From: Rhodospirillales bacterium
GTDB taxonomy: Bacteria > Pseudomonadota > Alphaproteobacteria > Acetobacterales > Acetobacteraceae
Length of the DNA stretch: 64,000 nt
NCBI GenBank assembly: GCA_037442565.1
Contig: JBBIQA010000001.1
Coordinates: 15,331-79,330, forward strand
Direction: 5' to 3'
The notes under the pieces are model-generated. The model ran no database searches and was not told where the DNA came from. It worked only from the letters and a program-made list of their open reading frames with translations. The position numbers and the translations under genes are program-made. Each line of letters starts with the position of its first letter. Positions within the stretch are counted from its first letter, which is position 1. Positions 13,157 through 36,848 of this stretch are shown one piece after another.

Positions 13157-13909
13157 CTATCGTCCGGCATCCTGCTGTGCCGCCTGCGGCGAGCCGAGCA
13201 GATTGTCGACCAGGATGTAGCTGCTCACCAGCAGCACCCAGGCCGGAAACACCATCAGCGCCCAGTCGAATTGCTCGCTGCCGAACAGCAGGAACAGGGC
13301 GCACAGGTAGCCGAGCACGGCCACCCAGCGCGCGGTGATGCGCGTGCGGATGGCGAGCGTGGAGGCGGTCACCATGAACACCGCCGCCATCTTGTAGGCA
13401 TAGACATGCATGATGCCGAAGGTGAACGCGCGGGCAAAGGCGAACGTGCCCGTGTCGAGGATCGCGCTCGGCTGGGCCGAATAGGCGATGATCACCCCCC
13501 CGGACGCCGCCGCGGCCACGAACACCATGCCCAGAAACATGAACCCGCTGCCGAGAAAGACCGTGGCGAAGAACCGGTCCTCCTGCGCCCCGAGGCGATC
13601 GCGCAGCACGCCGACGAACCACAGGAAGGCCACGCCGGCGAAGGGCACCAGGTTCAGGGCCAGCATCACCCGGCGCGAGCTGGTCGCGAGCCAGGCGCCG
13701 GCCTCCAGCGGATCGGCCGGCACCGTCATGCGCAGAATCCAGAGGCTGCTGATCAACAGTCCCGAGAACAGGATCCCGGCAATGGCGGCGGCGCGCGGTG
13801 TGCGCAGGCCGGCCCGAATGGCGGGCGCGTCGGTGAGGGTCGTGGGCGTCGGATCCTTTGCCATGGCGGATGGTCCCTTCGCCCAGCGATCGCCGCGCTC
13901 GATCGGCAT
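13157..13909 (-). CDS. Integral membrane protein, function unknown
   Basis: About six hydrophobic helices. Its start codon abuts a mini-ORF created by a 15-bp duplication downstream of the lipoprotein gene. Confidence 0.7.
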   Translation of the reverse strand: MPIERGDRWAKGPSAMAKDPTPTTLTDAPAIRAGLRTPRAAAIAGILFSGLLISSLWILRMTVPADPLEAGAWLATSSRRVMLALNLVPFAGVAFLWFVGVLRDRLGAQEDRFFATVFLGSGFMFLGMVFVAAAASGGVIIAYSAQPSAILDTGTFAFARAFTFGIMHVYAYKMAAVFMVTASTLAIRTRITARWVAVLGYLCALFLLFGSEQFDWALMVFPAWVLLVSSYILVDNLLGSPQAAQQDAGR

Positions 13910-19614: not shown

Positions 19615-20442
19615 TCACAGCCCCGCCTCATTCCCGGCCTGGCCCGGCGCCGGCGCCGCATGGCGGAACGTCACCACCAGCACGTCCCGATAGGCCGGCA
19701 GCGACGGATCCAGCTTCTCGATCGCGGTCACCCCATGCTTCACCCGATTGTCGTCCACCCAGGCGGCATCCATCGGATCGGTAAGGGTGAAGCTGCCCAG
19801 CGGATTGCCCGGCAGATCGGCGATGCGCGTTTCCCCGCTGGCGACGTTCTGGCGCGACACCAGCAGCACCAGCACCCAGTCCACGCCGTCCCGGTGCATC
19901 CCTTCCGGCGTCGGCAACCCCGGCTGCCCCACTCGTGCCTCGATACGAAACTGGTGCACTTCGACATGCCACGGTTCGCCCCAAGGCTGGCCCCAAGGCT
20001 GACCATGCCGCGGAACGCCGGCCGTGGCCGCATCGAACATGCTCCGGCAAAGCCGCAGGATCGCGCCGAGCGCGCTGCCCTCGCCGTCATCGATCACAAC
20101 GGGCGCGAACCAGCGTTGCACGCCGCCGTTCAGCGGATTGTAGTCACGGCTCTGATAATGCGGCTGCGCCGGCTGGCGGATGATCCCCTGCTCGCCGACC
20201 GCATAGACGGCATGGCGGCGTTTGCGGTAGCGCCCGCCGTCGGCCATGTACACGTCGGGCCCCAGGTCGTTCCAGCTTCGTGCGAACGCGTCCCAGTCCG
20301 AAAGCCCGGCTTCGGCGAGCAATGGCCGCATGACACCCTGCTCCGCGAGGGCAAAGCCCGTCTCTCGCAGAGTATCGCAGATCGTCTGAAACCGGTTCGC
20401 CGCCGCTCCGGTCACCACGCCAACGCCAGAAGCTTGTGTCAT
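19615..20442 (-). CDS. 2OG-Fe dioxygenase family protein
   Basis: RYRKRRH, HQFRIEA...GLPTPEGMHRDGVDWVLVLLVSRQNVASGET and DDNRVKHGVT fit the 2OG-Fe dioxygenase family facial-triad pattern (H-x-D...H). Confidence 0.85.
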   Translation of the reverse strand: MTQASGVGVVTGAAANRFQTICDTLRETGFALAEQGVMRPLLAEAGLSDWDAFARSWNDLGPDVYMADGGRYRKRRHAVYAVGEQGIIRQPAQPHYQSRDYNPLNGGVQRWFAPVVIDDGEGSALGAILRLCRSMFDAATAGVPRHGQPWGQPWGEPWHVEVHQFRIEARVGQPGLPTPEGMHRDGVDWVLVLLVSRQNVASGETRIADLPGNPLGSFTLTDPMDAAWVDDNRVKHGVTAIEKLDPSLPAYRDVLVVTFRHAAPAPGQAGNEAGL

Positions 20443-20586: not shown

Positions 20587-21843
20587 TCAGCCCACGGCCT
20601 CCAGCAGGGCCAGCGCCTCGTCCGGCCCGGCCAGGATCTCCACCAGCCGCACCCTGTCGGCGAGCCCCAGCGCGCCGTCCGCCTTCATGCCGCCGATCTC
20701 CCCGGCGGTGCGCTGCAACTGCGCCTCCAGCCCGTTGCGCGCGTTGATCTTGCGCGCCGCCGCTTCCAGCCGGCGCAGGTCGCGCGCGATGTCCTCCAGC
20801 CGGGTCACCTCGGCCGGATCGGCGCCGGGACGCAGCAGCATCAGCGGTGCGACCAGCTCGCCTGTCAGCCCGGCCTCGAAACGGCTGCGGCAGCTCGCCT
20901 CCACAAGCTGGCGCAGACCATGCACCCGCCGCCGCCGTTCGCTGCTCAGCTGGTCGCTGTCCAGGCCCTGCAGCAAGGCCAGGATGCGGACCACCTCGGG
21001 GCCGGCCTGCGACAATTCACTGCCGGCAACCGGCCCGCCGGCGCCGCCCTGCGCCTCCAGCCCGCCCAGAACCACGTCGATCGCCTGTTCGGCCGCCGCG
21101 CGCATCACCGAATTCGGCCCGATCAGCCCGTTCGAGATCGCCGCCCGCAGCACCGCATCCGCCTGCGGCAGACGCGACAGGAGCAAGGCCAGCAGCATCC
21201 CCCAGGCATCCGGGCTGTGCCCGGCGCTGGTGTCCAGCACCCGCAAGGCGTCTTCCGGCCGCAGCTTGCCGCCCTGGACGACGGTCGCCACCAGTTCGTG
21301 CAGTTCGCTCGCATGTGCCAGCACCACGGAGATGCCGCGCGACAGAGCGCTGAAAACCGATACCGGCAGGCCCGTGGCCTCCCACTGCGGCGGCGGCGGG
21401 CCGGCGCGCGCCAGGATCGCCGACGCCTGCGACCACAGCTGCTCGCCCACGGCCGAGATCGCCGCGCTGTCGGCCGTCGTCTTGCCGGCGATGAAGGCCT
21501 CGATCTCTGCGGCGACCGGACCCAGTTCGCCGCGCACCGCCTCCGCGATCGGCTCCAGCGCCGTGCGCGGAATGGTCGGGCTGCCCGGGCGCCATTTCGG
21601 GCCGGCCACGATCACCGGATCGAACGGGGTGAACAGCAGGCGGCAGAAGCGCAACGGACGGGCCAGCCGAAGCTGCGCCAGGCGTGGGCGCAATGGCGCG
21701 ATCAGGCGATCGGCCTCGCCCCGGTGGGGCAGCGCATCGACCATCGCCACCACGCGGCCGATCTGCGAATCGCGCGCGTGGTTCAGCTCGATATTTAGGT
21801 CCCGGAGCGTCTTCCTGTCGACGCCCCGAACGATTGCTGACAT
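20587..21843 (-). CDS. Hypothetical protein, 418 aa, predicted all-alpha, no recognisable domain
   Basis: Long clean ORF in the expected strand and frame, Leu/Ala/Arg-rich and helical in character. An AT-richer 105-bp leader lies upstream. Confidence 0.7.
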   Translation of the reverse strand: MSAIVRGVDRKTLRDLNIELNHARDSQIGRVVAMVDALPHRGEADRLIAPLRPRLAQLRLARPLRFCRLLFTPFDPVIVAGPKWRPGSPTIPRTALEPIAEAVRGELGPVAAEIEAFIAGKTTADSAAISAVGEQLWSQASAILARAGPPPPQWEATGLPVSVFSALSRGISVVLAHASELHELVATVVQGGKLRPEDALRVLDTSAGHSPDAWGMLLALLLSRLPQADAVLRAAISNGLIGPNSVMRAAAEQAIDVVLGGLEAQGGAGGPVAGSELSQAGPEVVRILALLQGLDSDQLSSERRRRVHGLRQLVEASCRSRFEAGLTGELVAPLMLLRPGADPAEVTRLEDIARDLRRLEAAARKINARNGLEAQLQRTAGEIGGMKADGALGLADRVRLVEILAGPDEALALLEAVG

Positions 21844-21948: not shown

Positions 21949-23064
21949 TCATGCCGCCAGGGCCCGCAAGCGCTCGTTGCGTCCGATCCTATCCAGCACC
22001 ATGCTGCCGGTGCGCCAATCCTCGTTCAGCGTCACGGTCTTGCGGAAGCGGTTCTGCCCGTCGCTATCGACCGGCGTGCCGACCCACTCCGTGGCCTCCT
22101 TGGGGATGACCGGAACGAGGGTCGCGATTTCCACCAGCGCGGCATGGCGCTCCGCCATGGTCTCTGCCCCGCGCCAGAGCAGGCAGATCCGCTCCCAGCC
22201 ATCCAGCAGCCACTCGGACCGCGCCACCCGCTCCGCCAGCGGCTCCGGCGCCGCGCCGAATTCGCGGATCAACCCGACAACATCGCCGGTCATGGCCTGC
22301 GCGTCGGCCAACGTGGCGCGCGCGCAGGTGATCGTCAGGCTAGCCGCCATGGTCGTCATGCCGGCCACTCCGCCGCTGTCGTCGGCGTGCTCCTGCGCCC
22401 AGGAAGCGGTTTGCGCCCGAAGCGCGCAAAGCTGCTCCAGCGCCCGGGGAATGCGCGCCTGATCGGCGAAGCTGCCGACGCCGACGCCCATGAAAACCTC
22501 CGCCAGTTCCTCCAGCCCCTTCGCGATGGTCTCCGGGGTCCAGCCGATCTTGGGCGCCAGTTCGGCGATTGTCTGCCTGGCCCGCGCCTCCAGTTCCTGC
22601 GGCTTGGCCCGATCCGGCGGCGGGGCGGCCCTGCCGTCCGGCTCCTGTTGTTCGACCATGGCCATCAGCAGCAGAAAATTGGTCACCATCCGGTCCTGCC
22701 GGTCGGTGTCGGCCGTGCTGCCCGCCGCTGCCTGCGCCTCGCGCCCGGCCAGCCCCTCGGCCGCCACTTCCCGCGCGGCCTCACGGATCAGCGCCGGCGT
22801 GACGGCCCGCAGAGTGGCGATCTTCTGGTTCAGCCGCGTGTCATGCACGGTCGGCTTGCATAGCTCGCGAACCCCGCTCCAGGGCAGGATATAGACGCCG
22901 CGCCCGCCCGAAGGGTTCGGCACGATCAGTTCCACGCCGCCGCGCTCCGACGGACGCGCCCGCGCCCCGGCAAGCATCGGCGTGGTGAAGGCCATCGCCA
23001 CCCCACGCTCCAGGAAGGTCGTGGGGTGATAGGTGTGGATCAGCGGTATATGCGGCTGTGACAT
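21949..23064 (-). CDS. Hypothetical protein, 371 aa, no recognisable domain
   Basis: Clean ORF, co-directional with and 105 bp upstream of the 418-aa unknown. The N-terminal part looks beta-rich (GVELIVPNPSGGRGVYILPW) and the rest helical. Confidence 0.7.
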   Translation of the reverse strand: MSQPHIPLIHTYHPTTFLERGVAMAFTTPMLAGARARPSERGGVELIVPNPSGGRGVYILPWSGVRELCKPTVHDTRLNQKIATLRAVTPALIREAAREVAAEGLAGREAQAAAGSTADTDRQDRMVTNFLLLMAMVEQQEPDGRAAPPPDRAKPQELEARARQTIAELAPKIGWTPETIAKGLEELAEVFMGVGVGSFADQARIPRALEQLCALRAQTASWAQEHADDSGGVAGMTTMAASLTITCARATLADAQAMTGDVVGLIREFGAAPEPLAERVARSEWLLDGWERICLLWRGAETMAERHAALVEIATLVPVIPKEATEWVGTPVDSDGQNRFRKTVTLNEDWRTGSMVLDRIGRNERLRALAA

Positions 23065-23987: not shown

Positions 23988-24653
23988 TCAAACGCCGGGC
24001 AGGTCGTCAATCGCCGGCCGCCCCGTCAGGTGTCGCCAATGGTGCCACAGCAGCCGCGCCGCCAGCGACCGGGCCGGTCGCCAGGGCTCCGCCAGCGCGC
24101 GCAGTTCCACCGGGCCGGGCCGGGCCGGCAATCCCTTCAGGGCCGCGGCCGCACCCGCCACGGCGATGTCGCCGGCGGGAAACACGTCGCGCCGGCCGAG
24201 CGCGAACAGCAGATAGATTTCCGCGCTCCAGCGCCCCATGCCGCGTACCGCGGTGATCGCCGCGATCGCCTCCTCGTCCGCCATGGCGGCGATCTTCGCC
24301 GCACTCAGCCGGCCGTCCGCGAAGGCGAGCGCCAGGTCGCGGGCATGCGCCACCTTCGGGCGCGACAGCCCGGCGGCGCGCAGATCCGCTTCCCCCATCG
24401 CCAGCAGCCCAGCCGGTTCGAGCGCGCCGGGCAATGCCCGCAGCCGTGCCCAGATGGCGGCGGCGGCCTGGTTGCTGATCATCTGCCCGACGATCGCCTG
24501 CAGCAGCCCGGGAAACCCGTCCGCCCGCCGCCGCCAGGGCAGCGGCCCGGCGGCCGCCTCGATCCGCGCCAGATCCGGATCGGCCGCGACCAGAAGCCCG
24601 ATCGCCGCGCGTTCGGCCGCCGGTACGGCCGGAAATGCGGCCACGGCCTCCAC
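23988..24653 (-). CDS. alkA: DNA-3-methyladenine glycosylase II (AlkA-like, HhH-GPD superfamily)
   Basis: HhH-GPD motifs (LRAAGLSRPKVAHARDLA, VRGMGRWSAEIYLLFALGRRDVFPAGD). The 344-aa ORF was trimmed to the GTG at 24653 so that it does not run through the upstream GNAT gene. Confidence 0.78.
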   Translation of the reverse strand: MEAVAAFPAVPAAERAAIGLLVAADPDLARIEAAAGPLPWRRRADGFPGLLQAIVGQMISNQAAAAIWARLRALPGALEPAGLLAMGEADLRAAGLSRPKVAHARDLALAFADGRLSAAKIAAMADEEAIAAITAVRGMGRWSAEIYLLFALGRRDVFPAGDIAVAGAAAALKGLPARPGPVELRALAEPWRPARSLAARLLWHHWRHLTGRPAIDDLPGV

Positions 24654-25171
24654 TAGGCCGGTATATCCGAATCCCCGGCACCCAGCGCGCGCTGCATCTG
24701 CACCACATCCAGCCACCGTCCGAATTTCAGGCCGGCCGACCGCAGCGTGCCGACATGCTGAAAGCCCAGACTGGCATGCACGCCGATCGAGCCGACATTT
24801 TCGGAATCGCCGATCACCGCGATCATCGTGCGAAACCCGGCCTGCGTCGCGATCTCGATCATGCGCGCGCCGAGCGCCTTGCCGACACCCTGGCCACGAA
24901 CGTCGTCGCGGATATAGATGCTGTCCTCGGCGGTGAAGCGATAGGCCGAACGGTCGCGGAACTGTGCGTAATAGGCGAAGCCCAGCACGCCGGTGGCATC
25001 GGCGGCCACCAGCCAGGCCCACCCATGATCGGCCACGCGGCGATAGCGCCGGGTCATCTCCTCGATCGACGGCGGCTCCTCCTCGAAAGTGCCGGTGCCG
25101 TGCAGCACGTGGTGGGCGTAGATCGCCTGGATCTCGGGAAGGTCGGCCGGGGCGGCGTCACGGATCTGCAT
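24653..25171 (-). CDS. GNAT family N-acetyltransferase (phosphinothricin acetyltransferase-like)
   Basis: MQIRDAAPADLPEIQAIYAHHVLHGTGTFEEEPPS is the PAT-type N-terminus, and RGQGVGKAL is the acetyl-CoA-binding motif. Confidence 0.9.
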   Translation of the reverse strand: MQIRDAAPADLPEIQAIYAHHVLHGTGTFEEEPPSIEEMTRRYRRVADHGWAWLVAADATGVLGFAYYAQFRDRSAYRFTAEDSIYIRDDVRGQGVGKALGARMIEIATQAGFRTMIAVIGDSENVGSIGVHASLGFQHVGTLRSAGLKFGRWLDVVQMQRALGAGDSDIPA

Positions 25172-25557: not shown

Positions 25558-27852
25558 GTGGACGATATCCAGGGTCAGTCCATATCATTTGCCGACGCGG
25601 CCGCCAGCGCCGGGGGCGGCGGCGATCAGGCCAGCGGCTCCGATGCCGGCTTCCGCCCGCGCGAGGAGCGTGTCGATCCGCGAGTCCGGGCCGTATCGCT
25701 GGCCGGACGCTACTACGGCATGGAACTGGACGAGGGCGATTTCCGCCGCACGGCCGGTGAAACCCACGCCTCCGCCGCCTCGCTGGCCGCCTGGGCGCAG
25801 GAATGCGGGCTCTGGGCGAAGGGCGTCCGGCTGAACTGGCGCCAGCTTGTGCGCATCCAGGCAGCGGGCCCGGTCGTGCTGCTGTTCACCGACGGCAGCG
25901 CCGGACTGATGACCGCCGCCAACGCGGAAAACCGCGTCGTCATGATCAAGGACCCGCTGGCCCCGGTCAGTGAGCCCGCGGTCGTGGTGGACGAAAACCG
26001 CCTGAAGCAGGTCTGGTCCGGCGAGGCCGTTCTGGTCCGCGCCAACCGCGGCATCGCGGCATCGGATGCGCCGTTCAACCGCAGCTGGCTGATCTCCCTG
26101 GTCGGGCAGGAGCGCCGCTCCCTGCGCGACATCGGCTACGCCTCGCTCACGCTCAGCTTCCTGACCATCTTCCCGCCGCTACTGGTCATGACCGCGGTGG
26201 ACAAGGTGCTGACCCATCACAGCTATTCCACCCTGGCGCTGCTGGCGACCATTCTGGCGATCGGCGTGGTCTACGAAACCCTGCTCGGCCACGCCCGGCG
26301 GATGATCGTGCTGACCGTCGGCACACGGCTCGACACCAAGCTGAACCTGCACATCTTCGCCCGCCTGCTGCGCCTGCCGCTCGACTATTTCGAGCGCCAT
26401 CCCGCCGGCGAGACGATGCACCGGCTCAATCAGGTGAACAAGGTGCGGGAATTCCTCACCGGCAAGCTGCTGACCACCTTCCTCGACATGTTCACCCTGG
26501 TGGTGCTGCTGCCGTTTCTGTTCTACCTCAACGCCACCCTCGCCTGGATCGTGGTGGCCTGCTCGGCGATGATCGCGCTCATCATCCTCGCCTTCCTGAA
26601 GCCGCTGCGCAAAGTCTACGGCAACGTCATCCTGGCCGAGACCGCCCGCGCCTCGGTGCTGGGCGAGACGATCTTCGGCGTGAAGACCGTCAAATCCCTC
26701 GCCATCGAACCCCAGCGCAAGGACCTGTGGGACGCCAAGGTGGCGGACGCGGGCAAGTGGCGCATGGAATTCGGCAAGCTTGCCAGCTGGCCGCAGACCA
26801 TGATCACCCCGATCGAGCGCTTCATGTCGATCGGCATCATCCTGCTCGGCGCCTACCTCGCCCTGAAGGACGACTCCGGCTTCGCCGTGGGCTCGCTGTT
26901 CGCGTTCATGATGCTGTCCATGCGCGTCGCCCAGCCGCTGGTCGGCCTGGCCCGGCTGATCGAGGATTTCGAGGAATTCAGCGCCGCCATCGGCGAGGCC
27001 GGCTCGGTGCTCAACCGGCCGCTGGAAGCCGATGCCGCGTCCGGCGGCCTGCGCCCGAAATTCGAGGGCGCGATCACCGTGGACGACCTGTCGTTCACCT
27101 ATGGCGGCACCAAGGTGCCGGCGCTGGACCGGGTCAGCTTCGCGATCCCGGCCGGGACCATGATGGGCGTGGTCGGGCGCAGCGGCTCGGGCAAATCCAC
27201 CCTGGCCCGGCTGCTGCAGGGCATCAACCGCGACTACTCGGGCTTCCTGAAGATCGACGGCGCCGACCTCCGGGAGATCAACCTGCGGCATCTGCGCTCC
27301 AGCTTCGGCGTCGTGCTGCAGGACAATTTCCTGTTCCGCGGCTCGATCCGCGACAACATCATCGCCGGTCGTCCCGGCCTGACGATCGAGGACGTGGTGC
27401 GGGCCGCGCGGCTGGCGGGCGCCGAGGAATTCATCGAGCGGATGCCGAACGGCTACGAAACCTATATCGAGGAAGGCTCGCCCAACCTTTCCGGCGGCCA
27501 GAAGCAGCGCCTGGCGATCGCCCGCGCGCTGATCCAGGATCCGCGCATCCTGATCCTGGACGAAGCCACCAGCGCGCTCGATCCGGAAAGCGAGGCCCTG
27601 GTCAACGCCAACCTCAACCGGATCGCGCGCGGCCGTACCATGGTGATCGTCTCCCACCGCCTGTCCTCGCTCACCGAGTGCGACCAGATCCTGGTGCTGG
27701 AGAAGGGCAAGCTGGTAGACATCGCGCCGCACCGCACGTTGCTCGAACGCTGCTCGCTCTATCGCCAGCTTTGGGCGCAGCAGAACCGTCACATGGATCA
27801 TCAGGGTACCCGTCATGCAGCGATCGCTCCTACCCTCCTCCAAGGCGACTAA
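25558..27852 (+). CDS. Type I secretion system permease/ATPase (HlyB family) with N-terminal non-catalytic C39-like domain
   Basis: GTG start. C39-like fold (SLAGRYYG...PVVLLFTDGS...VVMIKDP...VWSGEAVLV) that lacks the catalytic Cys and His. Six-TM exporter domain. Walker A GRSGSGKST, signature LSGGQKQR, Walker B ILILDEATSALD, H-loop VIVSHRL. Confidence 0.92.
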   Translation: MDDIQGQSISFADAAASAGGGGDQASGSDAGFRPREERVDPRVRAVSLAGRYYGMELDEGDFRRTAGETHASAASLAAWAQECGLWAKGVRLNWRQLVRIQAAGPVVLLFTDGSAGLMTAANAENRVVMIKDPLAPVSEPAVVVDENRLKQVWSGEAVLVRANRGIAASDAPFNRSWLISLVGQERRSLRDIGYASLTLSFLTIFPPLLVMTAVDKVLTHHSYSTLALLATILAIGVVYETLLGHARRMIVLTVGTRLDTKLNLHIFARLLRLPLDYFERHPAGETMHRLNQVNKVREFLTGKLLTTFLDMFTLVVLLPFLFYLNATLAWIVVACSAMIALIILAFLKPLRKVYGNVILAETARASVLGETIFGVKTVKSLAIEPQRKDLWDAKVADAGKWRMEFGKLASWPQTMITPIERFMSIGIILLGAYLALKDDSGFAVGSLFAFMMLSMRVAQPLVGLARLIEDFEEFSAAIGEAGSVLNRPLEADAASGGLRPKFEGAITVDDLSFTYGGTKVPALDRVSFAIPAGTMMGVVGRSGSGKSTLARLLQGINRDYSGFLKIDGADLREINLRHLRSSFGVVLQDNFLFRGSIRDNIIAGRPGLTIEDVVRAARLAGAEEFIERMPNGYETYIEEGSPNLSGGQKQRLAIARALIQDPRILILDEATSALDPESEALVNANLNRIARGRTMVIVSHRLSSLTECDQILVLEKGKLVDIAPHRTLLERCSLYRQLWAQQNRHMDHQGTRHAAIAPTLLQGD

Positions 27853-29239
27853 CCGGCCGGCGGGGGGCAGAAGCGCGACGAGCGACGATCCCACCCTGCC
27901 GGTGGTTCTCGAGTTCCAGTCGCCGTCGGCCGGCATCCTGGCGATGCCGGTGCCTCGCTCCGCCCGCGGCACGGTCTGGGTCATCGGGTCGATGTTCGCC
28001 GCCTGCGTGGTGGCGCTTGGCGTGATCCATGTCGACCGCGTGGTGACCGCCACCGGGCGGGTGGTATCCCGGTCGGCCAACATCGTCGTGCAGCCGCTGG
28101 AAACCGCCATTGTGCGCTCGATCGAGGTGCATGAGGGGCAGCAGGTCCATGCCGGCGACCTGCTGGCGCGGCTCGATCCCACCTTCGCGGTCGCCGATCA
28201 GGGCGCGCTGGTCGCGCAGGTCGACAGCCTGCAGGCCGAGGTATCCCGACTGCAGGCGGAAGCCGACGGCAAGCCCTTTACCTACACCGGCCTCGACCCG
28301 TCGCTGTCGCTGCAGTCGGCGATCTACGCCCAGCGCGCGGCCGAGCGCAGCTATAAGCTGGAGAACTACCGCCAGAAGATCGACGGCCTGCAGGCCACCG
28401 TGAACCGCTCCGAGGCCGACGCCGCGGCGTTCCGCAGCCGCCTCGCCGTCGCCCAGGATGTCGAGGCCATGCGCAAGAATCTCGAAAGGCTGCAGGTCGG
28501 CAGCAAGCTGAATTCGCTGGCCGCGACCGACAGCCGCCTGGAGATCGCCCGCGGCCTGGCTTCCGCCATCGAGACCGGGGAGACCGCCAAGCGTGACCTG
28601 AAGGCGATGGAAGCCGAGCGCGACGGCTACATCCAGACCTGGCGGGCACAGACCTCGCAATCCCTCACCGAGCAGGTTCGCAAGCTCAGCGACGCCCGCG
28701 AACAGCTGAACAAGGCGCAACTGCGCCGCAAGCTGGTGGAACTGCGCGCCGACCGTGACGCCACGGTGCTGACCCTGGCGCGGGTATCGGTCGGTTCGGT
28801 GCTGCAATCGGGAGAGCAGTTCATAACCCTGGTGCCGACCGACGCACCGATGGAGGTCGAAGCCAACATCGCCGGGCGCGACGACGGCTTCGTGCATGTC
28901 GGCGACCCCGTCGCGGTGAAGTTCGACACCTTCCCGTTCAGCCTGTACGGCATGGCCGAGGGCACGGTGCGCATCGTCAGCCCGGATAGCTTCACCGCCG
29001 CGGACACGCAGTCCAGCCGGAGCCCCGGGGCCGTGCCGCTACCGGGCAATTCGCCGGAGCCTTACTACCGCGCGCGGATCTCCATCGACCAGGTCAACCT
29101 GCACAACGTGCCGCCTAACTTCCGGATCAGCCCGGGCATGCCGGTCACCGCGGACGTCAAGGTCGGCAAGCGCACCGTCCTGAGCTACCTGCTGGGCCGC
29201 ATCCTGCCGGTCACCCAGGAGGGGATGCGCGAGCCGTGA
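27815..29239 (+). CDS. HlyD family type I secretion periplasmic adaptor (membrane fusion protein)
   Basis: VLEFQSPSAGILAMPVP N-terminus, one TM helix, long coiled-coil (LQAEVSRLQAEADG...), and a C-terminal ISPGMPVTADVKVGKRTVLSYLL motif. Overlaps the ABC gene by 38 nt. Confidence 0.92.
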   Translation: MQRSLLPSSKATNRPAGGRSATSDDPTLPVVLEFQSPSAGILAMPVPRSARGTVWVIGSMFAACVVALGVIHVDRVVTATGRVVSRSANIVVQPLETAIVRSIEVHEGQQVHAGDLLARLDPTFAVADQGALVAQVDSLQAEVSRLQAEADGKPFTYTGLDPSLSLQSAIYAQRAAERSYKLENYRQKIDGLQATVNRSEADAAAFRSRLAVAQDVEAMRKNLERLQVGSKLNSLAATDSRLEIARGLASAIETGETAKRDLKAMEAERDGYIQTWRAQTSQSLTEQVRKLSDAREQLNKAQLRRKLVELRADRDATVLTLARVSVGSVLQSGEQFITLVPTDAPMEVEANIAGRDDGFVHVGDPVAVKFDTFPFSLYGMAEGTVRIVSPDSFTAADTQSSRSPGAVPLPGNSPEPYYRARISIDQVNLHNVPPNFRISPGMPVTADVKVGKRTVLSYLLGRILPVTQEGMREP

Positions 29240-29318: not shown

Positions 29319-31166
29319 ATGAAGCCGTTCGATCGGATCCATTCCATCCTCTCCCCGGCGGCGGCTCTGCGCCGGGCCACCGCCCTCGCGGCCCGCGACG
29401 AGCATGCCCACGCCTTCCCCCTCTATGTTCGCGCCGCCCGCGGCGGACTGGCCGAGGCCGAGTATCGCGTCGGGCGCAGCTACCTCGAAGGCGCGGGTGT
29501 GCCGCGCAGCCAGGTCGAGGGCATCCGCTGGCTCGAGCGCGCCGCCGCCCACGGCCATATCGAGGCGATGTCCCTGCTTGCCGCGCTCTACATCCACGGC
29601 ATCGGCGGTCCCCGCGATGCCGCCCTCGCCGCAGGCGGTGTCCCCGGCGAAACCCAGGGCGCAACCCAGGGCGGAACCGCCGCCAGCCTGCTGTTCTCCA
29701 GCAACCAAACCCAGGAACCGGATTTCGCCGCCGCCGCCCATTGGGCCCGGATGGCTGCCGAGGCGGGCTCCGCCGACGGCCAAGCCGTGCTCGCCTATCT
29801 GCTGACCTCCGGCCCCGAGGACATGCGCGACCTCGCGGAGGCGCATCTCTGGTACGAACGCTCGGCCGAGGCCGGCTGCCCGCAAGGCGCGCTCGGCTTC
29901 GCCCTTTCCCTGGCACGCGACGCGAAGGAGGAGGCAACCCACCAACGCGTCGTGCACTACCTCACCCGCGCGGCGGAAACCGACCTACCGACGGCGCTGT
30001 ATCTGCTCGGCGTGCTGCATGAACGTGGTGTCGGCGTGGAGCGCGATACCGCCGCCGCGGCCCAGCTCTACCGCCGCGCCGCGGAAAAGGGCAACCGCTC
30101 CGGCCAGGCGCGCTGGGGCCTGGCGCTGATGGAGGGCCAGGGCGTCGACGCCAACCCGTCGGAGGGCGAATCCTGGCTGCGCCGCGCGGCGCTGGCGGGC
30201 GACCCCGAGGCCGCCGCCCTGGTCGGCGACATATACGCCAAGGGCGGCGCATTGCCGCCGAACTATGCCGAAGCGGCGATCTGGATGCGCCGCGCCGCCG
30301 AGGCCGGCCACGCCGGTGCCGCCCGCACGCTCGGCCTGCTGCACCTGACCGGCGCCGGCGTCGCCCCCGACCAGGAAGAAGCCGCCCGCTGGCTGCGCGT
30401 CGCCGGCGAAGCCGGCGACAAGCACGCCCAAGCCGATCTCGCCAACCTGGTGCTGAAGGGCGTCGGCGGCACGGACGACCTGTTGCGCACCCGCCAATGG
30501 TTCGAGCAGGCGGCCGCCTCCGGCGATCTGGTCGCCGCCTTCAACTATGGCGTCTGCCTCGCCCAGGGCGTCGGCGTTCCCAAGGACGAAAAGCAGGCCG
30601 CGGTATGGATGCGCCGGGCGGCCGAAGGGGTGGTCAACGCGCAGTATTGGTACGGCCGCATGCTGATCGAGGGCAAGGGCGTGCCGGTGGACCTGGAAGC
30701 CGGCCGCTCCTGGATCGCCCGGGCCGCCGATATCGGCATGCTGGACGCCGAAGTGGCGCTGGCCGACATGCTGCTCAACGGCAAGGGCGGCCCGCGCGAC
30801 CATGGCATGGCGCTGGGATTGTTCGAGAAGGCGGCGGCCAAGGGCCATGTCGGCGCCTGCTTCGCCGTCGGCGCGATGCTGGGCGGCGGGCATGAGGTAC
30901 CGACCGACCGCGTCAGCGCCCAGCGCTGGTTCCAGCAGGCGGCCGAGCGCGGCCATCCGGTGGCCCAGATGATGCTGGGCCGCTACCTCACGCGCGGCCT
31001 GGCCGGCGAGATCGACCCGGTTCGCGCCCGGCACTGGCTGAACCAGGCCGTCGCCAACGGCCAGACCGAAGCGTCGCGCGACCTGGCGGCGCTGGATCTG
31101 GCCGAGCGCAACAATCCGACGCAGCCATCCGAAGGGGCCCCGATCGCCCGCGCGGTCGGGCTCTGA
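29319..31166 (+). CDS. Sel1-like repeat (SLR/TPR-family) protein, 615 aa, no signal peptide
   Basis: More than ten repeats of the Sel1 pattern (AEAEYRVGRSYLEGAGVPRSQVEGIRWLERAAAHGH, and so on). The N-terminus has no hydrophobic leader. Confidence 0.9.
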   Translation: MKPFDRIHSILSPAAALRRATALAARDEHAHAFPLYVRAARGGLAEAEYRVGRSYLEGAGVPRSQVEGIRWLERAAAHGHIEAMSLLAALYIHGIGGPRDAALAAGGVPGETQGATQGGTAASLLFSSNQTQEPDFAAAAHWARMAAEAGSADGQAVLAYLLTSGPEDMRDLAEAHLWYERSAEAGCPQGALGFALSLARDAKEEATHQRVVHYLTRAAETDLPTALYLLGVLHERGVGVERDTAAAAQLYRRAAEKGNRSGQARWGLALMEGQGVDANPSEGESWLRRAALAGDPEAAALVGDIYAKGGALPPNYAEAAIWMRRAAEAGHAGAARTLGLLHLTGAGVAPDQEEAARWLRVAGEAGDKHAQADLANLVLKGVGGTDDLLRTRQWFEQAAASGDLVAAFNYGVCLAQGVGVPKDEKQAAVWMRRAAEGVVNAQYWYGRMLIEGKGVPVDLEAGRSWIARAADIGMLDAEVALADMLLNGKGGPRDHGMALGLFEKAAAKGHVGACFAVGAMLGGGHEVPTDRVSAQRWFQQAAERGHPVAQMMLGRYLTRGLAGEIDPVRARHWLNQAVANGQTEASRDLAALDLAERNNPTQPSEGAPIARAVGL

Positions 31167-31177
31167 TCCGCCGCGCC

Positions 31178-34100
31178 ATGGCCGCGCCTGTGCCGGAACC
31201 GGTGGACCCGGCCAAAGCCGGGCCAGCGGCCGGCGCCGACGCCGGGGAAAACGGGCCCGATCACGCCAAACTCGCCGGCGAGGCGTTAGCCCAGGGCCAG
31301 GAAGCCGCCGCCCGGGGCGACGCCGAGGCCGCTCGGCGCTGGTTCGACCGCGCCAGCCGCCTCGCGCCCGGCGACGACACCGCGACGCTCTGCCTCGCCA
31401 GCGCCTGCCTGAACCACGACAACGCCCGCGCCGCCGGACTGTTCGAGCAGGTGCTGGAACGCCACGATCTGCAGCCGGCCTGGATCGGCCTCGCGCTCGC
31501 CCGGCTGCGGCTCGGCCAGGCCGCGCCGGCCGCCCAGGCCCTGGCCGCCGCGCTCGGCCGCTTCGCGATCATCCGCCGCGACGACTTCGCCCCCATCGCC
31601 GACGCGATCGTGCAGGCAACGCAGGTTCCAGGCTGGTGCGGCCTGCAATGGCCCGGCGCGGGCCCAGGCCGTTCCGCGCCGGACGGCATGCTGTGTGTCG
31701 GTCCGCCTGGCCCTGCCGAAGTCGCGCTGGACGGCCAGCCCGTCGCCGCGCGCGTCACCCGCCACGGCCTGCGACTGCCGCCCCGCTGGCAGCAGGCCCG
31801 GCGCCTGGATGTCCATCGCAACGGCCAGCCCCTGCTCGGCAGCCCGATCGACATCGCCGCGCTCCGGCGTACCGAGGGCTGCGTCTGGGCGAGCGAAGGC
31901 GATGACGGGGTCGCGGGCGATGGGGGCCTGGAAGGCTGGGCCTGGCATCCCGCCAATCCCGAAGCCGACCCGGTGCTGACCCTGCGGGCACTGTCCGACC
32001 CCGCCGCGCCGGCCGGCCGCCGGAACCAACCGCCCGGCCGGACCCTCACCCTCACCCCCAGCGATCATGCCGCCTCTGTCATCGGCACGGCGATCCTGGC
32101 GCGGCCGAGACGGTTCCGCGTTTCGGCCCAGGCACTGGCCGCGCTGGCGGGAAACGGCCCCATCGGACAGATCAGCATCACCGGCGCCGACGGAAGACAG
32201 CTTTCCGGCAGCCCGCTCGACCCCGGGGTGCTGCACCGCGAGGCGGTCGCCGCCGCCCTGGCGATCGCGGCGCGCTTTCCGGCCGGCCCCCCGGCCAAAC
32301 GGGCCTCCCGCCGCCCGCCGGTGGATGTCGTCATCCCCGTGCATGGTGGCGGCCGGATCACGCTGGATTGCATCGACACGGTTCTGGCCACCCTGCCCCG
32401 CGCCAGCCGCCTGGTGGTGGTGGACGACGCCTCTCCCGAAACCGGCGACAACGCAGATCTCGCCCACGCGCTGGACCGCCTGGCCACCAGGCGGCGCATC
32501 CGGCTGATCCGTCATGCCGCCAATCTCGGTTTTCCCGCCAGCGCCAATGCCGGGCTGCGGGCCTGCGCAGGGCGCGACGCGGTGCTGCTGAACAGCGACA
32601 CGCTGGTGCCGCCCAACTGGCTGGAACGGCTGCGCGACGCCGCCTACAGCGCCGGCAATATTGGAACCGTCACGCCGTTGTCGAACGACGCGACCATCCT
32701 CAGCTATCCCCATCCGAGCGCCGCCAGCCCGGCCCCCACCCTGGCCGAAACCGAATGCCTGGACCGGCTTGCCGCACAGGCCAACGGCGCCGGCGTGATC
32801 GACATCCCCACCGCGGTCGGCTTCTGCATGTATATCCGCCGCGACTGCCTGGACGCGGTCGGCGCCCTGCGCGAGGACCTGTTCGCCCAGGGCTACGGCG
32901 AGGAGAACGATTTCTGCATGCGCGCCCGCCATCTCGGCTGGCGCCACGTCGCCGCGCCGGGCGTCTTCATCGCGCACCGCTCCGGCCAGTCCTTCGGCAG
33001 CGCGCGGGCACACCTGCTGTCGCGCAACGCCGCGGTGCTGGACCGGCTGCACCCGGGCTACGCCGCCCTGGTCGCCCGGCACGGCCTGGCCGACCCGCTG
33101 GCCCACGCGCGCCGGCGGATCGACGCGGCCCGATGGCGGGAAGGCGCCAAGCGAGGCGGGGGCCAACGAAGCGGGGCCCGCCGGAAGGCCATGATCCTGG
33201 TCACCCATTTTCACGGCGGCGGCACCGAACGCCAGCTGCGCGTGCAGATCGAGGCCGCCCGCCAGGCCGGGCAGCGCCCGATCGTGCTGCGCCCGGCCCG
33301 CCTGCCGGACGGCTCGACGGCCGTCATGCTCGGGGACGGCGAGGCCACCGAGTACCCCAATCTGCGCTTCGCCCTGCCCGCCGAATTGCCCGCCGTGATC
33401 CGCCTGCTCGCCGCCGAGCGACCGGTCGCGGCGCAGGTGCATCATCTGCTCGGCCACGATCCGTCGGTGCTGCAAATCCTGGCGAAACTCGCCCTTCCCT
33501 ACGACGTCCACGTCCACGACTTCGCCGCCTTCTGCCCGCGCGTCGGCCTGCTCGGCCCCGAAAGGCGATATTGCGGCGAGCCCGACATCGCCCGGTGCGA
33601 GGCCTGCATCGCCGATATCGGCCGCAAGGACGGGCTGGACATCCCGGTGGCGGAACTGCGACGGCAATCGGCCGGCCTGTTCGCCGCCGCCGCCCGCGTC
33701 GTGGCGCCCTCGAACGACACCGCCACCCGGATCCGGCGGCACTTCCCGGCCATCGAGCCGGCCGTCGTCGAGCATGGCGACGACCGGGCCGTCGCCGACC
33801 CGCCGCCGCCCCGGCTGGTGCGCCGATCCGGGCTCGGGGGAAGTGCGGAATCGACGGGCCAGCCCGGCCAGGCGATCTGCCGCGTCGCCGTGATCGGCGC
33901 CATCGGCCTCGAAAAAGGCTACGAGGTGCTGCTGGCCTGCGCGCGCGACGCCGCCTGGCGGAACCTGCCGCTTGAATTCATCGTGATCGGCCACAGCATC
34001 GACGACGCCCGCCTGCTGGCCACCGGACGGGTCTTCATCACCGGGGAATACCGCCCGGAGGAGGCCGTGGACCTGATCCGCGCCCAGCAGGCCTCGCTCG

Positions 34101-34315
34101 CGCTGATCCCGTCGATCTGGCCGGAAACCTGGTGCTTCACCCTGACCGAGGCGTGGCAGGCCGGCCTGCAAGCCGCCTGCTTCGACATCGGCGCGCCGGC
34201 CGAACGCATCCGGCGCAGCGGGCGCGGCATGGTCCTGCCGCTCGGACTGCCCGCCGGCGCCATCAATCATCAAATGATGACGGCAACCGGCCTCGCGCGA
34301 GACGAAAGGGCCTGA
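31178..34315 (+). CDS. Multidomain glycosyltransferase: N-terminal TPR-like region + linker + GT2 (GT-A) domain + C-terminal GT4-like (GT-B) domain
   Basis: TPR-like helices at about aa 20-130. GT2 motifs VDVVIPVHGG, VVVDDASPE, LLNSDT and GFCMYIRR. The C-terminal GT-B half (MILVTHFHGGGTERQ...) carries an E-x7-E motif (PETWCFTLTEAW). No TM segments. Confidence 0.88.
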   Translation: MAAPVPEPVDPAKAGPAAGADAGENGPDHAKLAGEALAQGQEAAARGDAEAARRWFDRASRLAPGDDTATLCLASACLNHDNARAAGLFEQVLERHDLQPAWIGLALARLRLGQAAPAAQALAAALGRFAIIRRDDFAPIADAIVQATQVPGWCGLQWPGAGPGRSAPDGMLCVGPPGPAEVALDGQPVAARVTRHGLRLPPRWQQARRLDVHRNGQPLLGSPIDIAALRRTEGCVWASEGDDGVAGDGGLEGWAWHPANPEADPVLTLRALSDPAAPAGRRNQPPGRTLTLTPSDHAASVIGTAILARPRRFRVSAQALAALAGNGPIGQISITGADGRQLSGSPLDPGVLHREAVAAALAIAARFPAGPPAKRASRRPPVDVVIPVHGGGRITLDCIDTVLATLPRASRLVVVDDASPETGDNADLAHALDRLATRRRIRLIRHAANLGFPASANAGLRACAGRDAVLLNSDTLVPPNWLERLRDAAYSAGNIGTVTPLSNDATILSYPHPSAASPAPTLAETECLDRLAAQANGAGVIDIPTAVGFCMYIRRDCLDAVGALREDLFAQGYGEENDFCMRARHLGWRHVAAPGVFIAHRSGQSFGSARAHLLSRNAAVLDRLHPGYAALVARHGLADPLAHARRRIDAARWREGAKRGGGQRSGARRKAMILVTHFHGGGTERQLRVQIEAARQAGQRPIVLRPARLPDGSTAVMLGDGEATEYPNLRFALPAELPAVIRLLAAERPVAAQVHHLLGHDPSVLQILAKLALPYDVHVHDFAAFCPRVGLLGPERRYCGEPDIARCEACIADIGRKDGLDIPVAELRRQSAGLFAAAARVVAPSNDTATRIRRHFPAIEPAVVEHGDDRAVADPPPPRLVRRSGLGGSAESTGQPGQAICRVAVIGAIGLEKGYEVLLACARDAAWRNLPLEFIVIGHSIDDARLLATGRVFITGEYRPEEAVDLIRAQQASLALIPSIWPETWCFTLTEAWQAGLQAACFDIGAPAERIRRSGRGMVLPLGLPAGAINHQMMTATGLARDERA

Positions 34316-34392: not shown

Positions 34393-35541
34393 ATGTCCGA
34401 GACGAGACCAGCGCCAGCGGAAAGCGGCCAGAAGCGGATCACCGAATTGCGGGTGTCCGGCCATCTGATGACCCTGGAGACCGGCACATTCTGCGTCTTC
34501 CACGCGCCGGGCTCCGCCGCCGGCGACCCCGCGCTCGGCCTGCCGGGCGTGCGCATCTCGCTGCCGCCGGGGCCGGTGCACAACCAGGACCAGGTCAGCA
34601 TCAGCACGTTCCGCCCCGACGGCTGGTTGGGCGGCTCCGATTCCGCGGCGCTGATCCGTGTCGCCTCCGGCCCGGCCCAGGTGCTAGTAACGATCTACCA
34701 GGCCCCCGGGCAAGGCAACGAGAACGCCCCGAAGCTGCAGGTGCTGCGCCTCAGCCCAGAGCCGCAGCCGGCGTCCGCGGCGGCGCCCGGCCAGGCGAAG
34801 CCGGCCGACGCGGCGGTGCCATCGGGCGCCGGCAAGGCCGGCGCGGCGGCGCCGGCCGGCGAACGCCCGGGCATTGAGGGCACGCCGGACATCATCGTGC
34901 ACCGCCAGGTGGTCGGCGACGTCGCCAGCCGGATCGGCGAATGGGCCGGCGAACGCGCCAGCCGAAACTGGATCGAAGGGTTCTCGATCCTGCCGCCGTC
35001 GCCGCTGAAGGCCGAGGACATCGAATACCAGGCCGTGCTCGGCCGCGGCTGGCTGTCGCCCTGGGTCAATGGCGGCCAGTTCTGCGGCAGCCGCGGCATG
35101 GCGCTGCCCCTGCTCGGCCTGCGGCTGCGGCTGAAGGGGGACGCGGCCGAACGCTATGACTGCGTCTGCCACGCCAGCTTCATCGACGGCACGCAGGTCG
35201 GCCCGCTGCCGGCCGGCGCCGCCTGCGAGGCGGAGAGCCTGGCCCCGCTGGAAGCCTTCCAGATCATCATCGAGCCCAAAGCGGCAGCCCGTAGGGCGAC
35301 GCCGGCACCAGCGCCAGCACATGCGAAAGCCCAGGCGGCCCCGCCGGTGCAAGCCACGCCAGCAGCCGCGCGGATGGTGCCGGCCAAGGCGAAGCCCATG
35401 GCGAAGTCCGCGCCTGCAAAGCCGGTCGCCAAGGGAAAGGCGGCCGCACCGTCCAAACCCGCCGCGGCGAAACCGGCGGCCAAAGCCAGGCCCAGCGCAG
35501 CGGCGAAGCGCCCCTCGCCATCGGGCACACGGGCCCGCTGA
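34393..35541 (+). CDS. Hypothetical protein: N-terminal beta-rich domain, three ChW-like repeats, Ala/Lys/Pro-rich basic C-terminal tail
   Basis: GAGGT Shine-Dalgarno 6 nt before the ATG. Internal three-fold repeat at aa 166-293. The tail at aa 296-382 is rich in AKP/KPAA-type motifs. No signal peptide and no GGxGxD repeats. Confidence 0.75.
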   Translation: MSETRPAPAESGQKRITELRVSGHLMTLETGTFCVFHAPGSAAGDPALGLPGVRISLPPGPVHNQDQVSISTFRPDGWLGGSDSAALIRVASGPAQVLVTIYQAPGQGNENAPKLQVLRLSPEPQPASAAAPGQAKPADAAVPSGAGKAGAAAPAGERPGIEGTPDIIVHRQVVGDVASRIGEWAGERASRNWIEGFSILPPSPLKAEDIEYQAVLGRGWLSPWVNGGQFCGSRGMALPLLGLRLRLKGDAAERYDCVCHASFIDGTQVGPLPAGAACEAESLAPLEAFQIIIEPKAAARRATPAPAPAHAKAQAAPPVQATPAAARMVPAKAKPMAKSAPAKPVAKGKAAAPSKPAAAKPAAKARPSAAAKRPSPSGTRAR

Positions 35542-35621: not shown

Positions 35622-36848
35622 ATGAAGTTCCTGCTGGTTCATCAGAACTTCCCCGGGCAGTTCCTGCACCTCGTTCGCCACCTGGCGAAAGCGAAGACGC
35701 ATGAGGTCGTGTTCCTGTCGGAACCGAACCCCAACGTGATCTCCGGCGTGCGCAAGGTGCCCTACCGCAAGCCGCCGCCGGTTTCACCCGAAACCCACTG
35801 GGCGGCGCGGGAATTCGATGCCGCGATGCGCCGGGCGGAAATGGTCGCGCAGACCGCCGGCAACCTGAAGCAGCTCGGCTTCACTCCGGACATCATCATC
35901 GGCCATCACGGCTGGGGCGAGATGCTCAACCTGCCGGATGTCTGGCCCGACGCGCCGATGCTCGGCTACATGGAATTCTATTACCATACCGACGGTGTCG
36001 ATGTCGGGTTCGACACCGAATTCCCGATCCCGGTTGCCGAATTTCCCCGCATCCGGGCCAAGAACGCCGTCAACCATCTGGCCCTGAACCTTGGCCAGCA
36101 CGGCCAGACACCCACGCGATGGCAGCGTTCCACCTATCCGGACTGGGCGCATGAGCAGATCCACCTGCTGCCCGAGGGCGTGGATCTCGCGGCCTGCGCG
36201 CCCAGCGCCAAGGCCCGCAAGGCGCGGCTGAAGATCGGCGGCACGACGATCGGCCCGCAGGAAAAGCTGGTGACCTATGTCGCGCGCGACCTGGAACCGT
36301 ATCGCGGCTTCCACGTCCTGATGCGAACGCTGCCGCTGCTGCTGAAGGCGCGCAAGGATCTGCGCGTGGTCATCGTCGGCGGCGACGGCGTCAGCTACGG
36401 CGCCGCGCCGGCCAGCGGCACCTGGCGTGAAACCATGCTGGCCGAGCTTGGCGGCAAGATCGACCTCAGTCGCGTCGTTTTCCCCGGCCGGGTCGACTAC
36501 GCAACGTACCTGGCCCTGCTGAAGCGCTCGGACGCGCATGTCTACCTCACCTACCCCTTCGTCGCCTCCTGGTCGCTACGCGAGGCTCTGGCGAGCGGTT
36601 GCGCCGTGGTCGGCTCCGACACCGAGCCGGTGCGCGAGTTCGTCACCCATGGCGTCAACGGCCTGCTCGTGCCGTTCTTCGACACCAAGGCCCTGGCCCG
36701 CCAGATCCTGAAGGTGATCGAGGACGACGCCCTGTCCAAGCGGCTTCGTGCCGGGGCCCGGCGCTACGCCGAGGCGCATCTGGCCATGGACGACTACATT
36801 CGCGACTATGAGGCGCTGATCGCCCGTATCATCGCGCCGAACGAATGA
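35622..36848 (+). CDS. Glycosyltransferase family 4 (GT-B, retaining type)
   Basis: MKFLLVHQNFPGQF N-terminus typical of a GT4 subgroup. The C-terminal half has PFVASWSLREALASGCAVVGSD (E-x7-E region). Confidence 0.88.
   Translation: MKFLLVHQNFPGQFLHLVRHLAKAKTHEVVFLSEPNPNVISGVRKVPYRKPPPVSPETHWAAREFDAAMRRAEMVAQTAGNLKQLGFTPDIIIGHHGWGEMLNLPDVWPDAPMLGYMEFYYHTDGVDVGFDTEFPIPVAEFPRIRAKNAVNHLALNLGQHGQTPTRWQRSTYPDWAHEQIHLLPEGVDLAACAPSAKARKARLKIGGTTIGPQEKLVTYVARDLEPYRGFHVLMRTLPLLLKARKDLRVVIVGGDGVSYGAAPASGTWRETMLAELGGKIDLSRVVFPGRVDYATYLALLKRSDAHVYLTYPFVASWSLREALASGCAVVGSDTEPVREFVTHGVNGLLVPFFDTKALARQILKVIEDDALSKRLRAGARRYAEAHLAMDDYIRDYEALIARIIAPNE

Follow-up and report, generated by a model that had tools for sequence, protein, structure and literature searches.

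A glycosyltransferase with a WbbB-like polymerase cassette, encoded in a conserved operon with type I secretion and Sel1 genes in Acetobacteraceae

The window analysed here is a stretch of 64,000 nucleotides from a Rhodospirillales bacterium of the family Acetobacteraceae (assembly GCA_037442565.1, contig JBBIQA010000001.1, positions 15,331 to 79,330 of the forward strand), and all positions below are counted within it. It encodes a soluble, multi-module glycosyltransferase (GT) of 1045 amino acids (aa), which we call GT1045. The gene stands in a row of six, in the order HlyB-type ATP-binding cassette transporter (ABC), HlyD-family adaptor, Sel1-repeat protein (Sel1), GT1045, a protein of 382 residues (p382) and a GT4 glycosyltransferase, with ABC and HlyD forming a putative type I secretion system (T1SS). 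We consider it fairly likely that GT1045 is a bifunctional polymerase of the WbbB type that works with p382 and the GT4 enzyme, and that its output depends on the T1SS and Sel1. This reading draws on the fold, the homology, the intactness of the catalytic residues, the gene fusions and the synteny. GT1045 itself would be a polymerase of known kind in a new architecture; more surprising is the fixed pairing of the trio with T1SS and Sel1. Literature searches found no published description of such a T1SS, Sel1 and glycosyltransferase system or of the corresponding Azospirillum plasmid genes.

Table 1. The six genes, the modules of GT1045 and the divergent neighbour, in positions of the window
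Feature	Position	Strand	Evidence
GNAT acetyltransferase, divergent syntenic neighbour	24653..25171	-	PF13420, E 1e-17
HlyB-type type I secretion ABC transporter, N-terminal C39-like domain	25558..27852	+	TIGR01846
HlyD-family type I secretion periplasmic adaptor	27815..29239	+	TIGR01843, 377 bits against a cut-off of 209
Sel1-repeat protein, 615 aa, ten repeats	29319..31166	+	PF08238, E 1e-84
GT1045, soluble multi-module glycosyltransferase, 1045 aa	31178..34315	+	Reading frame, G+C at third codon positions, structure model
TPR region, aa 29-148, seven helices	31262..31621	+	Family profile, model
Tandem beta-sandwich module, aa 150-350	31625..32227	+	Sub-model, invariant residues
GT-A (GT2-type) catalytic module, aa 382-660	32321..33157	+	PF00535, K4CP profile, fold
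GT-B module, aa 670-1040, four-cysteine cluster	33185..34297	+	PF00534, PF13439, fold
p382, accessory two-domain protein, 382 aa	34393..35541	+	PF07538, fusions, synteny
GT4 glycosyltransferase, 408 aa (Glyco_trans_4_3 + Glycos_transf_1)	35622..36848	+	PF12000, PF00534

The reading frame of GT1045 is open throughout and is a real gene. Its codon bias is gene-like (G+C of 0.77, 0.56 and 0.88 at the three codon positions, in a window of 68% G+C), while an overlapping antisense frame of 995 aa fails the same filter, as do the other long antisense frames there. The AlphaFold model (mean pLDDT 85.6, pTM 0.80) places helices at aa 29-148, a beta-rich part at 153-345, a helix at 351-366, a GT-A fold at 382-660 and a GT-B fold at 670-1040. 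No transmembrane helix was found, the highest mean Kyte-Doolittle value over 19 residues being 1.45, below the transmembrane level. An earlier note, written from the sequence alone, had described a soluble protein with tetratricopeptide repeat (TPR) helices followed by an unassigned module, a GT-A domain and a GT-B domain, and Pfam, family profile and model agree with that order, as the hydropathy values do with its solubility. The unassigned module exists and is conserved, with limits at about aa 150-366 instead of 130-390.

The GT-A module matches PF00535 well above its gathering threshold (aa 380-608; 52.6 bits against 23.3; E 6.5e-14). In profile searches with an alignment of 56 homologues, on which the residue counts below are also based, it matches chondroitin synthase K4CP (E 2.5e-14), and in Foldseek searches ppGalNAc-T2 (E 3.6e-11), its best fold matches being polypeptide GalNAc-transferases. 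Its DxD-type motif takes the variant form NxD (N472-S473-D474) and, like D417, is invariant in 56/56 sequences. An O-antigen polymerase, Klebsiella ORF6-O7, has the NxD form in its second GT2 module, where it is functional (PMC11231755). The GT-B module falls just below the cut-off for PF00534 (Glycos_transf_1, with Glyco_trans_1_4 at aa 903-1021; 26.2 bits against 26.4; E 6.5e-6) and matches PF13439 (Glyco_transf_4, aa 681-864) with E 4.6e-3; its fold is clear, with Foldseek matches to BshA, PimA and glycogen synthase. The E-x7-E motif that the note had read at the end of this module is present: E983 is invariant, and position 991 is E in 48 of the 56 sequences and Ala in WbbB, whose corresponding module, the nearest to that of GT1045, is placed outside GT4 by CAZy (PMC11231755).

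Eight divergent proteins with these two modules, WbbB among them, share D417, N472, D474, GYGEEN (572-577), H755, H780-D781, K913-G914 and E983 without exception, and all of these residues are also found in 56/56 members of the GT1045 family. Because the catalytic residues are intact and the NxD form is functional elsewhere, both modules look active. Four cysteines, C786, C799, C807 and C810 (33533-33607; FCPR...YCGEP...CEAC), are likewise present in 56/56 family members and kept in Azospirillum. They lie in the N-lobe of the GT-B module and resemble a structural site for a metal. WbbB has C810 alone of the four; since the other three are absent there, the GT-B module has diverged from its WbbB counterpart.

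According to a tblastn search of annotated plasmids, aa 382-1011 of GT1045 form one cassette that recurs in many proteins with differing accessory parts. The tblastn matches of the cassette include a Klebsiella record (7e-63) and Escherichia coli plasmid copies (about 1e-61 to 3e-63). The homologue encoded on the E. coli plasmids and in the K. pneumoniae record, where it adjoins the his operon, has 1188 aa and lies in a locus of the order rfbBADC-GT2-wzm-wzt-GT. The beta-Kdo transferase (GT99) of WbbB forms its N-terminus (PDB 5fa0, E 2e-83; Pfam PF21912), and aa 448-1042 of the K. pneumoniae protein are colinear with aa 382-1011 of GT1045, with 32% identity over about 630 aa (E 2e-87). On undecaprenyl diphosphate, the C-terminal pair of WbbB modules polymerises the [4)-alpha-Rha-(1-3)-beta-GlcNAc-(1-] O12 antigen; this pair founded the CAZy families GT102 and GT103 (PMC9587256, PMC11231755). 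WbbB (Klebsiella pneumoniae O12 and Raoultella terrigena) and GT1045 are both single multi-module polypeptides with a GT-A and a GT-B module in the same order, sharing the motifs DAS, NSD, GYGEEN, HH, HD, KG and PET.

The polymerase half of WbbB is the closest characterised homologue. From the two folds on one chain the earlier note had deduced the synthesis of a disaccharide unit or a polymer, and the colinear homology supports it in this. It had also favoured a protein or a protein-held partner as acceptor, unless the closest characterised homologues were undecaprenyl-linked O-antigen polymerases; with WbbB as the closest, this is largely what was found. The alternating addition of two sugars, i.e. 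a polymerase, is the simplest reading of the cassette. Another, uncharacterised arrangement of the cassette lies on a plasmid of Komagataeibacter saccharivorans, an acetic acid bacterium (L083, 6526-17442), and contains two consecutive GT2 and GT-B cassette proteins of 1003 and 870 aa, preceded by a GT61 enzyme and a 1028-aa DUF1796/TPR/HAD protein.

Outside the cassette, the two enzymes differ. Only WbbB has the N-terminal GT99 beta-Kdo terminator, a helical spacer (a coiled coil that serves as molecular ruler) and a basic amphipathic anchor helix at the C-terminus. GT1045 gives no match to PF21912 and instead begins with the TPR region and two beta-sandwiches; these, the four-cysteine cluster and the separate p382 are peculiar to it. 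WbbB works with wzm/wzt, and loci of its type include dTDP-rhamnose genes; both sets of genes surround the orthologue of GT1045 in Azospirillum as well as the relatives in Klebsiella and E. coli. The window has neither, and GT1045 sits in the T1SS/Sel1 operon instead.

The TPR region is faint in single-sequence Pfam searches (E 0.3-1, below thresholds) and becomes clear in the comparison of the family profile with designed TPR proteins (E 1.7e-21) and in the model, where the seven helices are paired; the helices seen in the earlier note are real. Two conclusions that it drew from them are not supported, namely that they point to a protein acceptor and that they are unusual in enzymes of envelope polysaccharides. 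TPR domains are common in soluble dual-enzyme capsule polymerases, and that of Cps3D serves dimerisation, primer elongation and processivity (PMC11666461). A Cps3D-type polymerase (8qoy) is a whole-chain Foldseek match to GT1045 (E 3e-10), with a low overall TM-score of 0.22. Cps3D and Cps7D of Actinobacillus pleuropneumoniae resemble GT1045 in being soluble, about 1000-1300 aa long and composed of a TPR domain and two transferase modules. Cps3D differs in that its transferases are a TagF-like phosphotransferase and a GT-B module, without GT-A or beta-sandwiches, and in that it belongs to KpsMT group 2 capsule loci. The TPR-containing protein glycosyltransferases OGT/GT41 and FlmG, as well as GmaR, are absent from the sequence and profile matches of GT1045 in the PDB and from its top 50 fold matches, and no flagellar genes or acceptor candidates were found at the locus. 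The TPR region may nevertheless bind a protein partner, the adjacent Sel1 protein being the obvious candidate, as a scaffold rather than as an acceptor.

The middle module, modelled alone (aa 127-381; pLDDT 88.7), consists of two beta-sandwiches followed by a helix. Each sandwich has a GW motif at its start (GWCG and GWAWHP) and LLGSPxD at its end, and the residues G152, W153, C154, G253, W254, W256, P258, G344, S345 and P346 are invariant in the family alignment. A Foldseek search with the dedicated sub-model found no solved structure for it, the best E-value being 0.05 and the matches being weak sandwiches of immunoglobulin, fibronectin type III or carbohydrate-binding-module type. A relation to p382 as a repeat was considered and dropped (best BLASTP E 0.68).

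The product of the next gene, p382, has an N domain at aa 15-120, a ChW-like domain at aa 165-290 (PF07538, weak, E 1.6e-5) and a basic tail with much Lys, Ala and Pro, which gives the protein a pI of 12. ChW repeats bind wall glycans. The tail (35278-35541, aa 296-382) varies in length; most orthologues end with an RRxR-like motif, and the tail is missing where the module is fused to a glycosyltransferase. Such a fusion occurs in the Azospirillum brasilense orthologue of GT1045, whose C-terminal part (aa 1112-1382; 31% identity, E 2e-30) contains both p382 domains; all ten Azospirillum plasmid matches are fused in this way. Among 1.84 billion representative proteins, 2175 relatives of p382 were found, and the long ones are fusions to the GT2 and GT-B cassette, to GT61, to a GT92/GT2_4 enzyme or to Glyco_trans_4_3 GT4s like the one encoded downstream. 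No solved relative was detected (best E 0.16 for the family profile against the PDB), NCBIfam had no match, and a comparison with the C-terminal anchor region of WbbB revealed no similarity. Because it is fused to the orthologous enzyme and to other glycosyltransferase families, p382 is, on comparative grounds, an accessory module of cytoplasmic glycosyltransferases and not a substrate, and we reject it as cargo and as acceptor, the latter a role that the earlier note had offered it; besides the Azospirillum orthologue, three other glycosyltransferase families carry it. It presumably binds glycan, membrane or both. The downstream GT4 is recognised by both of its domains (PF12000, E 4.8e-58; PF00534, E 1.1e-20), has PimA as nearest solved relative (E 1.4e-9) and has a 48% identical homologue two genes after the Azospirillum fusion enzyme.

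Relatives of GT1045 are encoded in at least 583 species genomes, mostly of Acetobacteraceae, and we compared the loci from 80 of them. ABC, HlyD and Sel1 are kept in 59 of the 62 loci with room upstream, and p382 and GT4 in 67 of the 70 with room downstream. The stop codon of Sel1 lies 11 bp before the start of GT1045, and the fixed order, this junction included, persists down to protein identities of 45-50%. There are no terminator-like sites between the six genes. The flanks vary between genomes, from which it follows that the six genes move together. The unit is also present in culturable Rhodopila, Acidisoma and Acidisphaera, its carriers including Rhodopila globiformis DSM 161, Acidisoma sp. 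L85 and Acidisphaera sp. L21. In one Acetobacteraceae locus (L075, about 6900-13800) ABC and HlyD are missing from the order GNAT, Sel1, GT, p382, GT4, which shows that Sel1 stays with the glycosyltransferases. Three paralogous loci (L048, L057 and L074) have no operon and lie among housekeeping genes (NAD synthase, CoA-transferase).

The transporter is best matched from end to end by TIGR01846, the HlyB subfamily (aa 44-743, E 5e-163; 544 bits against a cut-off of 726). Its N-terminal domain has no Pfam match to Peptidase_C39 and has neither Cys nor His at the C39 catalytic positions; it is conserved (majority frequency 0.68) and resembles the inactive domain of HlyB. As the first ~40 residues of the frame (25558-25680) are not conserved among orthologues, the true start probably lies downstream of the listed one; the ABC and HlyD frames overlap by 38 nucleotides as listed (27815-27852). 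Sel1 has no signal peptide and no hydrophobic N-terminus, and an upstream extension is impossible. The search for a cargo returned nothing. None of the frames of the window contains a run of RTX nonapeptides (isolated GGxGxD matches only, all in the wrong frame), the 387 bp preceding the ABC gene hold no credible small reading frame, and neither the window nor the 80 related loci encode homologues of the RTX or DUF4347 proteins of Azospirillum, Bradyrhizobium and Mesorhizobium.

These observations bear on the idea that GT1045 is a protein glycosyltransferase that is held to its substrate by its TPRs and, in the cytoplasm, puts a di- or oligosaccharide on a T1SS cargo that is about to be exported or is being exported. 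This cargo could be Sel1 or a surface protein of RTX type whose gene lies elsewhere. The tight, conserved synteny with a protein-secreting T1SS would fit, as would the solubility of all three proteins of the glycosyltransferase system and the lack of lipid-carrier and wzm/wzt genes in the window; small Ser/Thr-rich RTX proteins, methyltransferases and rhamnose genes do lie beside the Azospirillum and Bradyrhizobium relatives. The GalNAc-transferase fold matches, which might be added, we do not accept as evidence for protein glycosylation, since they reflect the generic GT-A core common to GT2 and GT27, with 16-22% identity among the GalNAc-transferase matches listed. Moreover, the closest characterised homologue is a polymerase of lipid-linked glycans, p382 is a module fused to enzymes and not a substrate, the 80 loci show no cargo gene up to 10 kb away, the Azospirillum orthologue sits in a wzm/wzt cluster, and the paralogues stand alone without a T1SS. 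We know of no glycosylated type I secretion substrate. Taken together, protein glycosylation appears quite unlikely.

More is learned from distant relatives. The A. brasilense orthologue (Sp7 p5 AMK58_RS28885; 1396 aa), itself uncharacterised, is 40% identical over aa 43-1034 of GT1045 and has the orthologous TPR, sandwich, GT-A and GT-B parts. Its neighbours include wzm/wzt, methyltransferases, GT4s, rfb and gmd genes and an adjacent RTX protein. It differs from GT1045 in the fused p382, in these additional genes and in that the ABC-HlyD-Sel1 triad is outside the operon: on the A. brasilense plasmids the triad is found 14-23 kb from the fusion enzyme, near gmd, wzm/wzt, rfbABCD and a gene for an RTX metalloprotease-like protein. 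Plasmids of Mesorhizobium ciceri have the triad (ABC 64.5% and Sel1 53% identical) among exopolysaccharide (EPS) genes and next to a DUF4347/collagen-repeat protein, without a GT of the GT1045 type. In Bradyrhizobium the order is RTX protein, methyltransferase, ABC, HlyD, Sel1, a 1308-aa WbsX+GT4+GT2 protein and rfbB/A (L089, 3450-14907, on B. japonicum plasmid pS11L-4); the RTX protein is Ca-binding, and the WbsX+GT4+GT2 protein, 7 bp after Sel1, is a multi-module enzyme not homologous to GT1045. A relative in Rhodospirillum rubrum that consists of the cassette only has T1SS genes and an RTX protein gene on one side and rfbABCD, manC and gmd, i.e. rhamnose and mannose genes, on the other. Because the triad recurs beside multi-module glycosyltransferases, and because L075 keeps Sel1 with the enzyme, Sel1 appears to connect a system for protein secretion with large, soluble enzymes that build glycans and belong to more than one family.

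The same relatives could be explained by co-location without mechanical coupling. The trio would make a lipid-linked polysaccharide, exported by a wzm/wzt pair encoded elsewhere, the T1SS would secrete a surface or S-layer-type protein that the polymer anchors, and the two would share regulation only. Caulobacter RsaA, which needs O-antigen as an anchor, provides the model. The distance between triad and glycosyltransferase cluster in Azospirillum, on one plasmid with wzm/wzt present, is compatible with this, and so are the Mesorhizobium triad beside its DUF4347/collagen-repeat protein and the frequency of RTX proteins at the loci of these relatives. However, mere co-regulation does not readily account for the 11-bp junction and fixed order in 59 of 62 loci, for the position of the Bradyrhizobium Sel1 directly before an unrelated multi-module enzyme, or for the retention of Sel1 with the GT after loss of ABC and HlyD in L075, and a cargo in need of an anchor is not encoded nearby. 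We regard co-location alone as unlikely.

A precedent for a functional connection comes from galactoglucan (EPS II) of Sinorhizobium meliloti, a polysaccharide with a disaccharide repeat. Mutants of the T1SS ExpD1/ExpD2, by which the Ca-binding protein ExpE1 is secreted, fail to make or to secrete it (PMC1403797). As in the operon described here, whose polymer would have a disaccharide repeat too, the exp/wg cluster contains genes for a type I secretion ABC protein and its membrane fusion protein (PMC1403797); the relatives of GT1045 further resemble it in having methyltransferases, dTDP-sugar genes and a small RTX protein that binds Ca. The systems differ in that the ExpD1 system is PrtD/PrtE-like (PMC1403797) and that the secreted ExpE1 is encoded in the cluster, whereas the window has no such gene. 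Homologues of GT1045 or Sel1 were not detectable among Sinorhizobium plasmids. The likeness is one of organisation, an analogy and not membership in the same system. To our knowledge, the dependence of EPS II on a T1SS has never been explained mechanistically since the work on ExpD1, ExpD2 and ExpE1.

One could go further and let HlyB/HlyD itself export the glycan, free or on a small carrier and in place of wzm/wzt, with Sel1 feeding the chain into the transporter. The operon contains no other exporter, exporter-type ABC proteins related to this one move glycans, the transporter has weaker matches to the NdvA/ChvA and HepA families, and EPS II is lost in the expD1/expD2 mutants. Yet its best match is the protein-secreting HlyB subfamily, conserved C39-like domain included, and there is no demonstrated precedent. 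In HlyB, this domain binds unfolded protein cargo. Direct glycan export by HlyB/HlyD is in our opinion highly improbable.

We therefore return to GT1045 as a WbbB-type polymerase. In the model that we favour, the enzyme would reside in the cytoplasm, where the GT-A and GT-B modules would each add one sugar alternately and so extend a polysaccharide of disaccharide repeats on an acceptor that may or may not be lipid-linked. By analogy with WbbB and with the genes beside the relatives, the polymer would likely contain rhamnose. The TPR region and the two sandwiches would stand in for the Kdo-terminator and the coiled coil of WbbB and probably serve oligomerisation, partner docking and the handling of primer or chain, as described for the TPR domain of Cps3D. 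As a detachable module, p382 may bind the glycan and may be held at the membrane by its basic tail. GT4 would be the third transferase, adding a primer, an adaptor, a branch or a cap. Since the trio appears to be co-transcribed with a dedicated HlyB/HlyD T1SS and a cytoplasmic Sel1 scaffold, production or release of the polymer is probably T1SS-dependent, comparable to galactoglucan with ExpD1/ExpD2/ExpE1.

Several points weigh against this model. GT1045 has neither the C-terminal amphipathic membrane anchor nor the terminator module of WbbB. Genes for wzm/wzt, for a polyprenyl-phosphate initiating transferase, for sugar nucleotides and for an O-antigen ligase are all absent from the 64-kb window, so that the lipid-linked route is deduced from the relatives only, and the sugars are not readable from the sequence. 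On the secretion side, the window has neither a TolC gene nor a gene for a T1SS cargo, no cargo gene was found up to 10 kb away in the 80 loci, and HlyB-type ABC proteins with a C39-like domain are known to export proteins, not glycans.

Among the neighbouring genes, the GNAT acetyltransferase directly adjoins the operon on the opposite strand. It resembles the phosphinothricin and arsinothricin N-acetyltransferases (ArsN1/PAT), below NCBIfam cut-offs, and is present upstream in most related loci, a homologue having been extracted from 53 of them. On an Azospirillum plasmid (L086), a GNAT of unrelated length also follows Sel1. Elsewhere in the window, two reverse-strand frames (20587-21843 and 21949-23064) have good codon bias and no Pfam match and adjoin a PF10014 2-oxoglutarate/iron dioxygenase gene (19615-20442). 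A forward-strand frame of 459 aa (53409-54788; gene-like G+C of 0.80 at third codon positions) has no Pfam match at E 1e-5.

The recurrence of the triad allows a bolder reading. ABC-HlyD-Sel1 could be an accessory system, so far unrecognised, for the assembly of polysaccharides or glycoconjugates. Sel1 would dock soluble multi-module polymerases by their TPR region onto the HlyB-type translocon, and the glycan, or a carrier protein that bears it, would leave via the T1SS channel and not via wzm/wzt or Wzx/Wzy. We think that this is probably too bold and put it forward as a speculation. If true, it would amount to a new route of surface-glycan export and would explain why EPS II needs ExpD1/ExpD2.

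Independently of the export route, a large uncharacterised clade re-uses the WbbB cassette with a TPR/beta-sandwich front and the detachable p382, and polymerases of ABC-transporter-dependent glycans are templates for glyco-engineering. The six-gene unit is a minimal system for testing how a polysaccharide may depend on protein secretion, with relatives in the genetically tractable A. brasilense Sp7.

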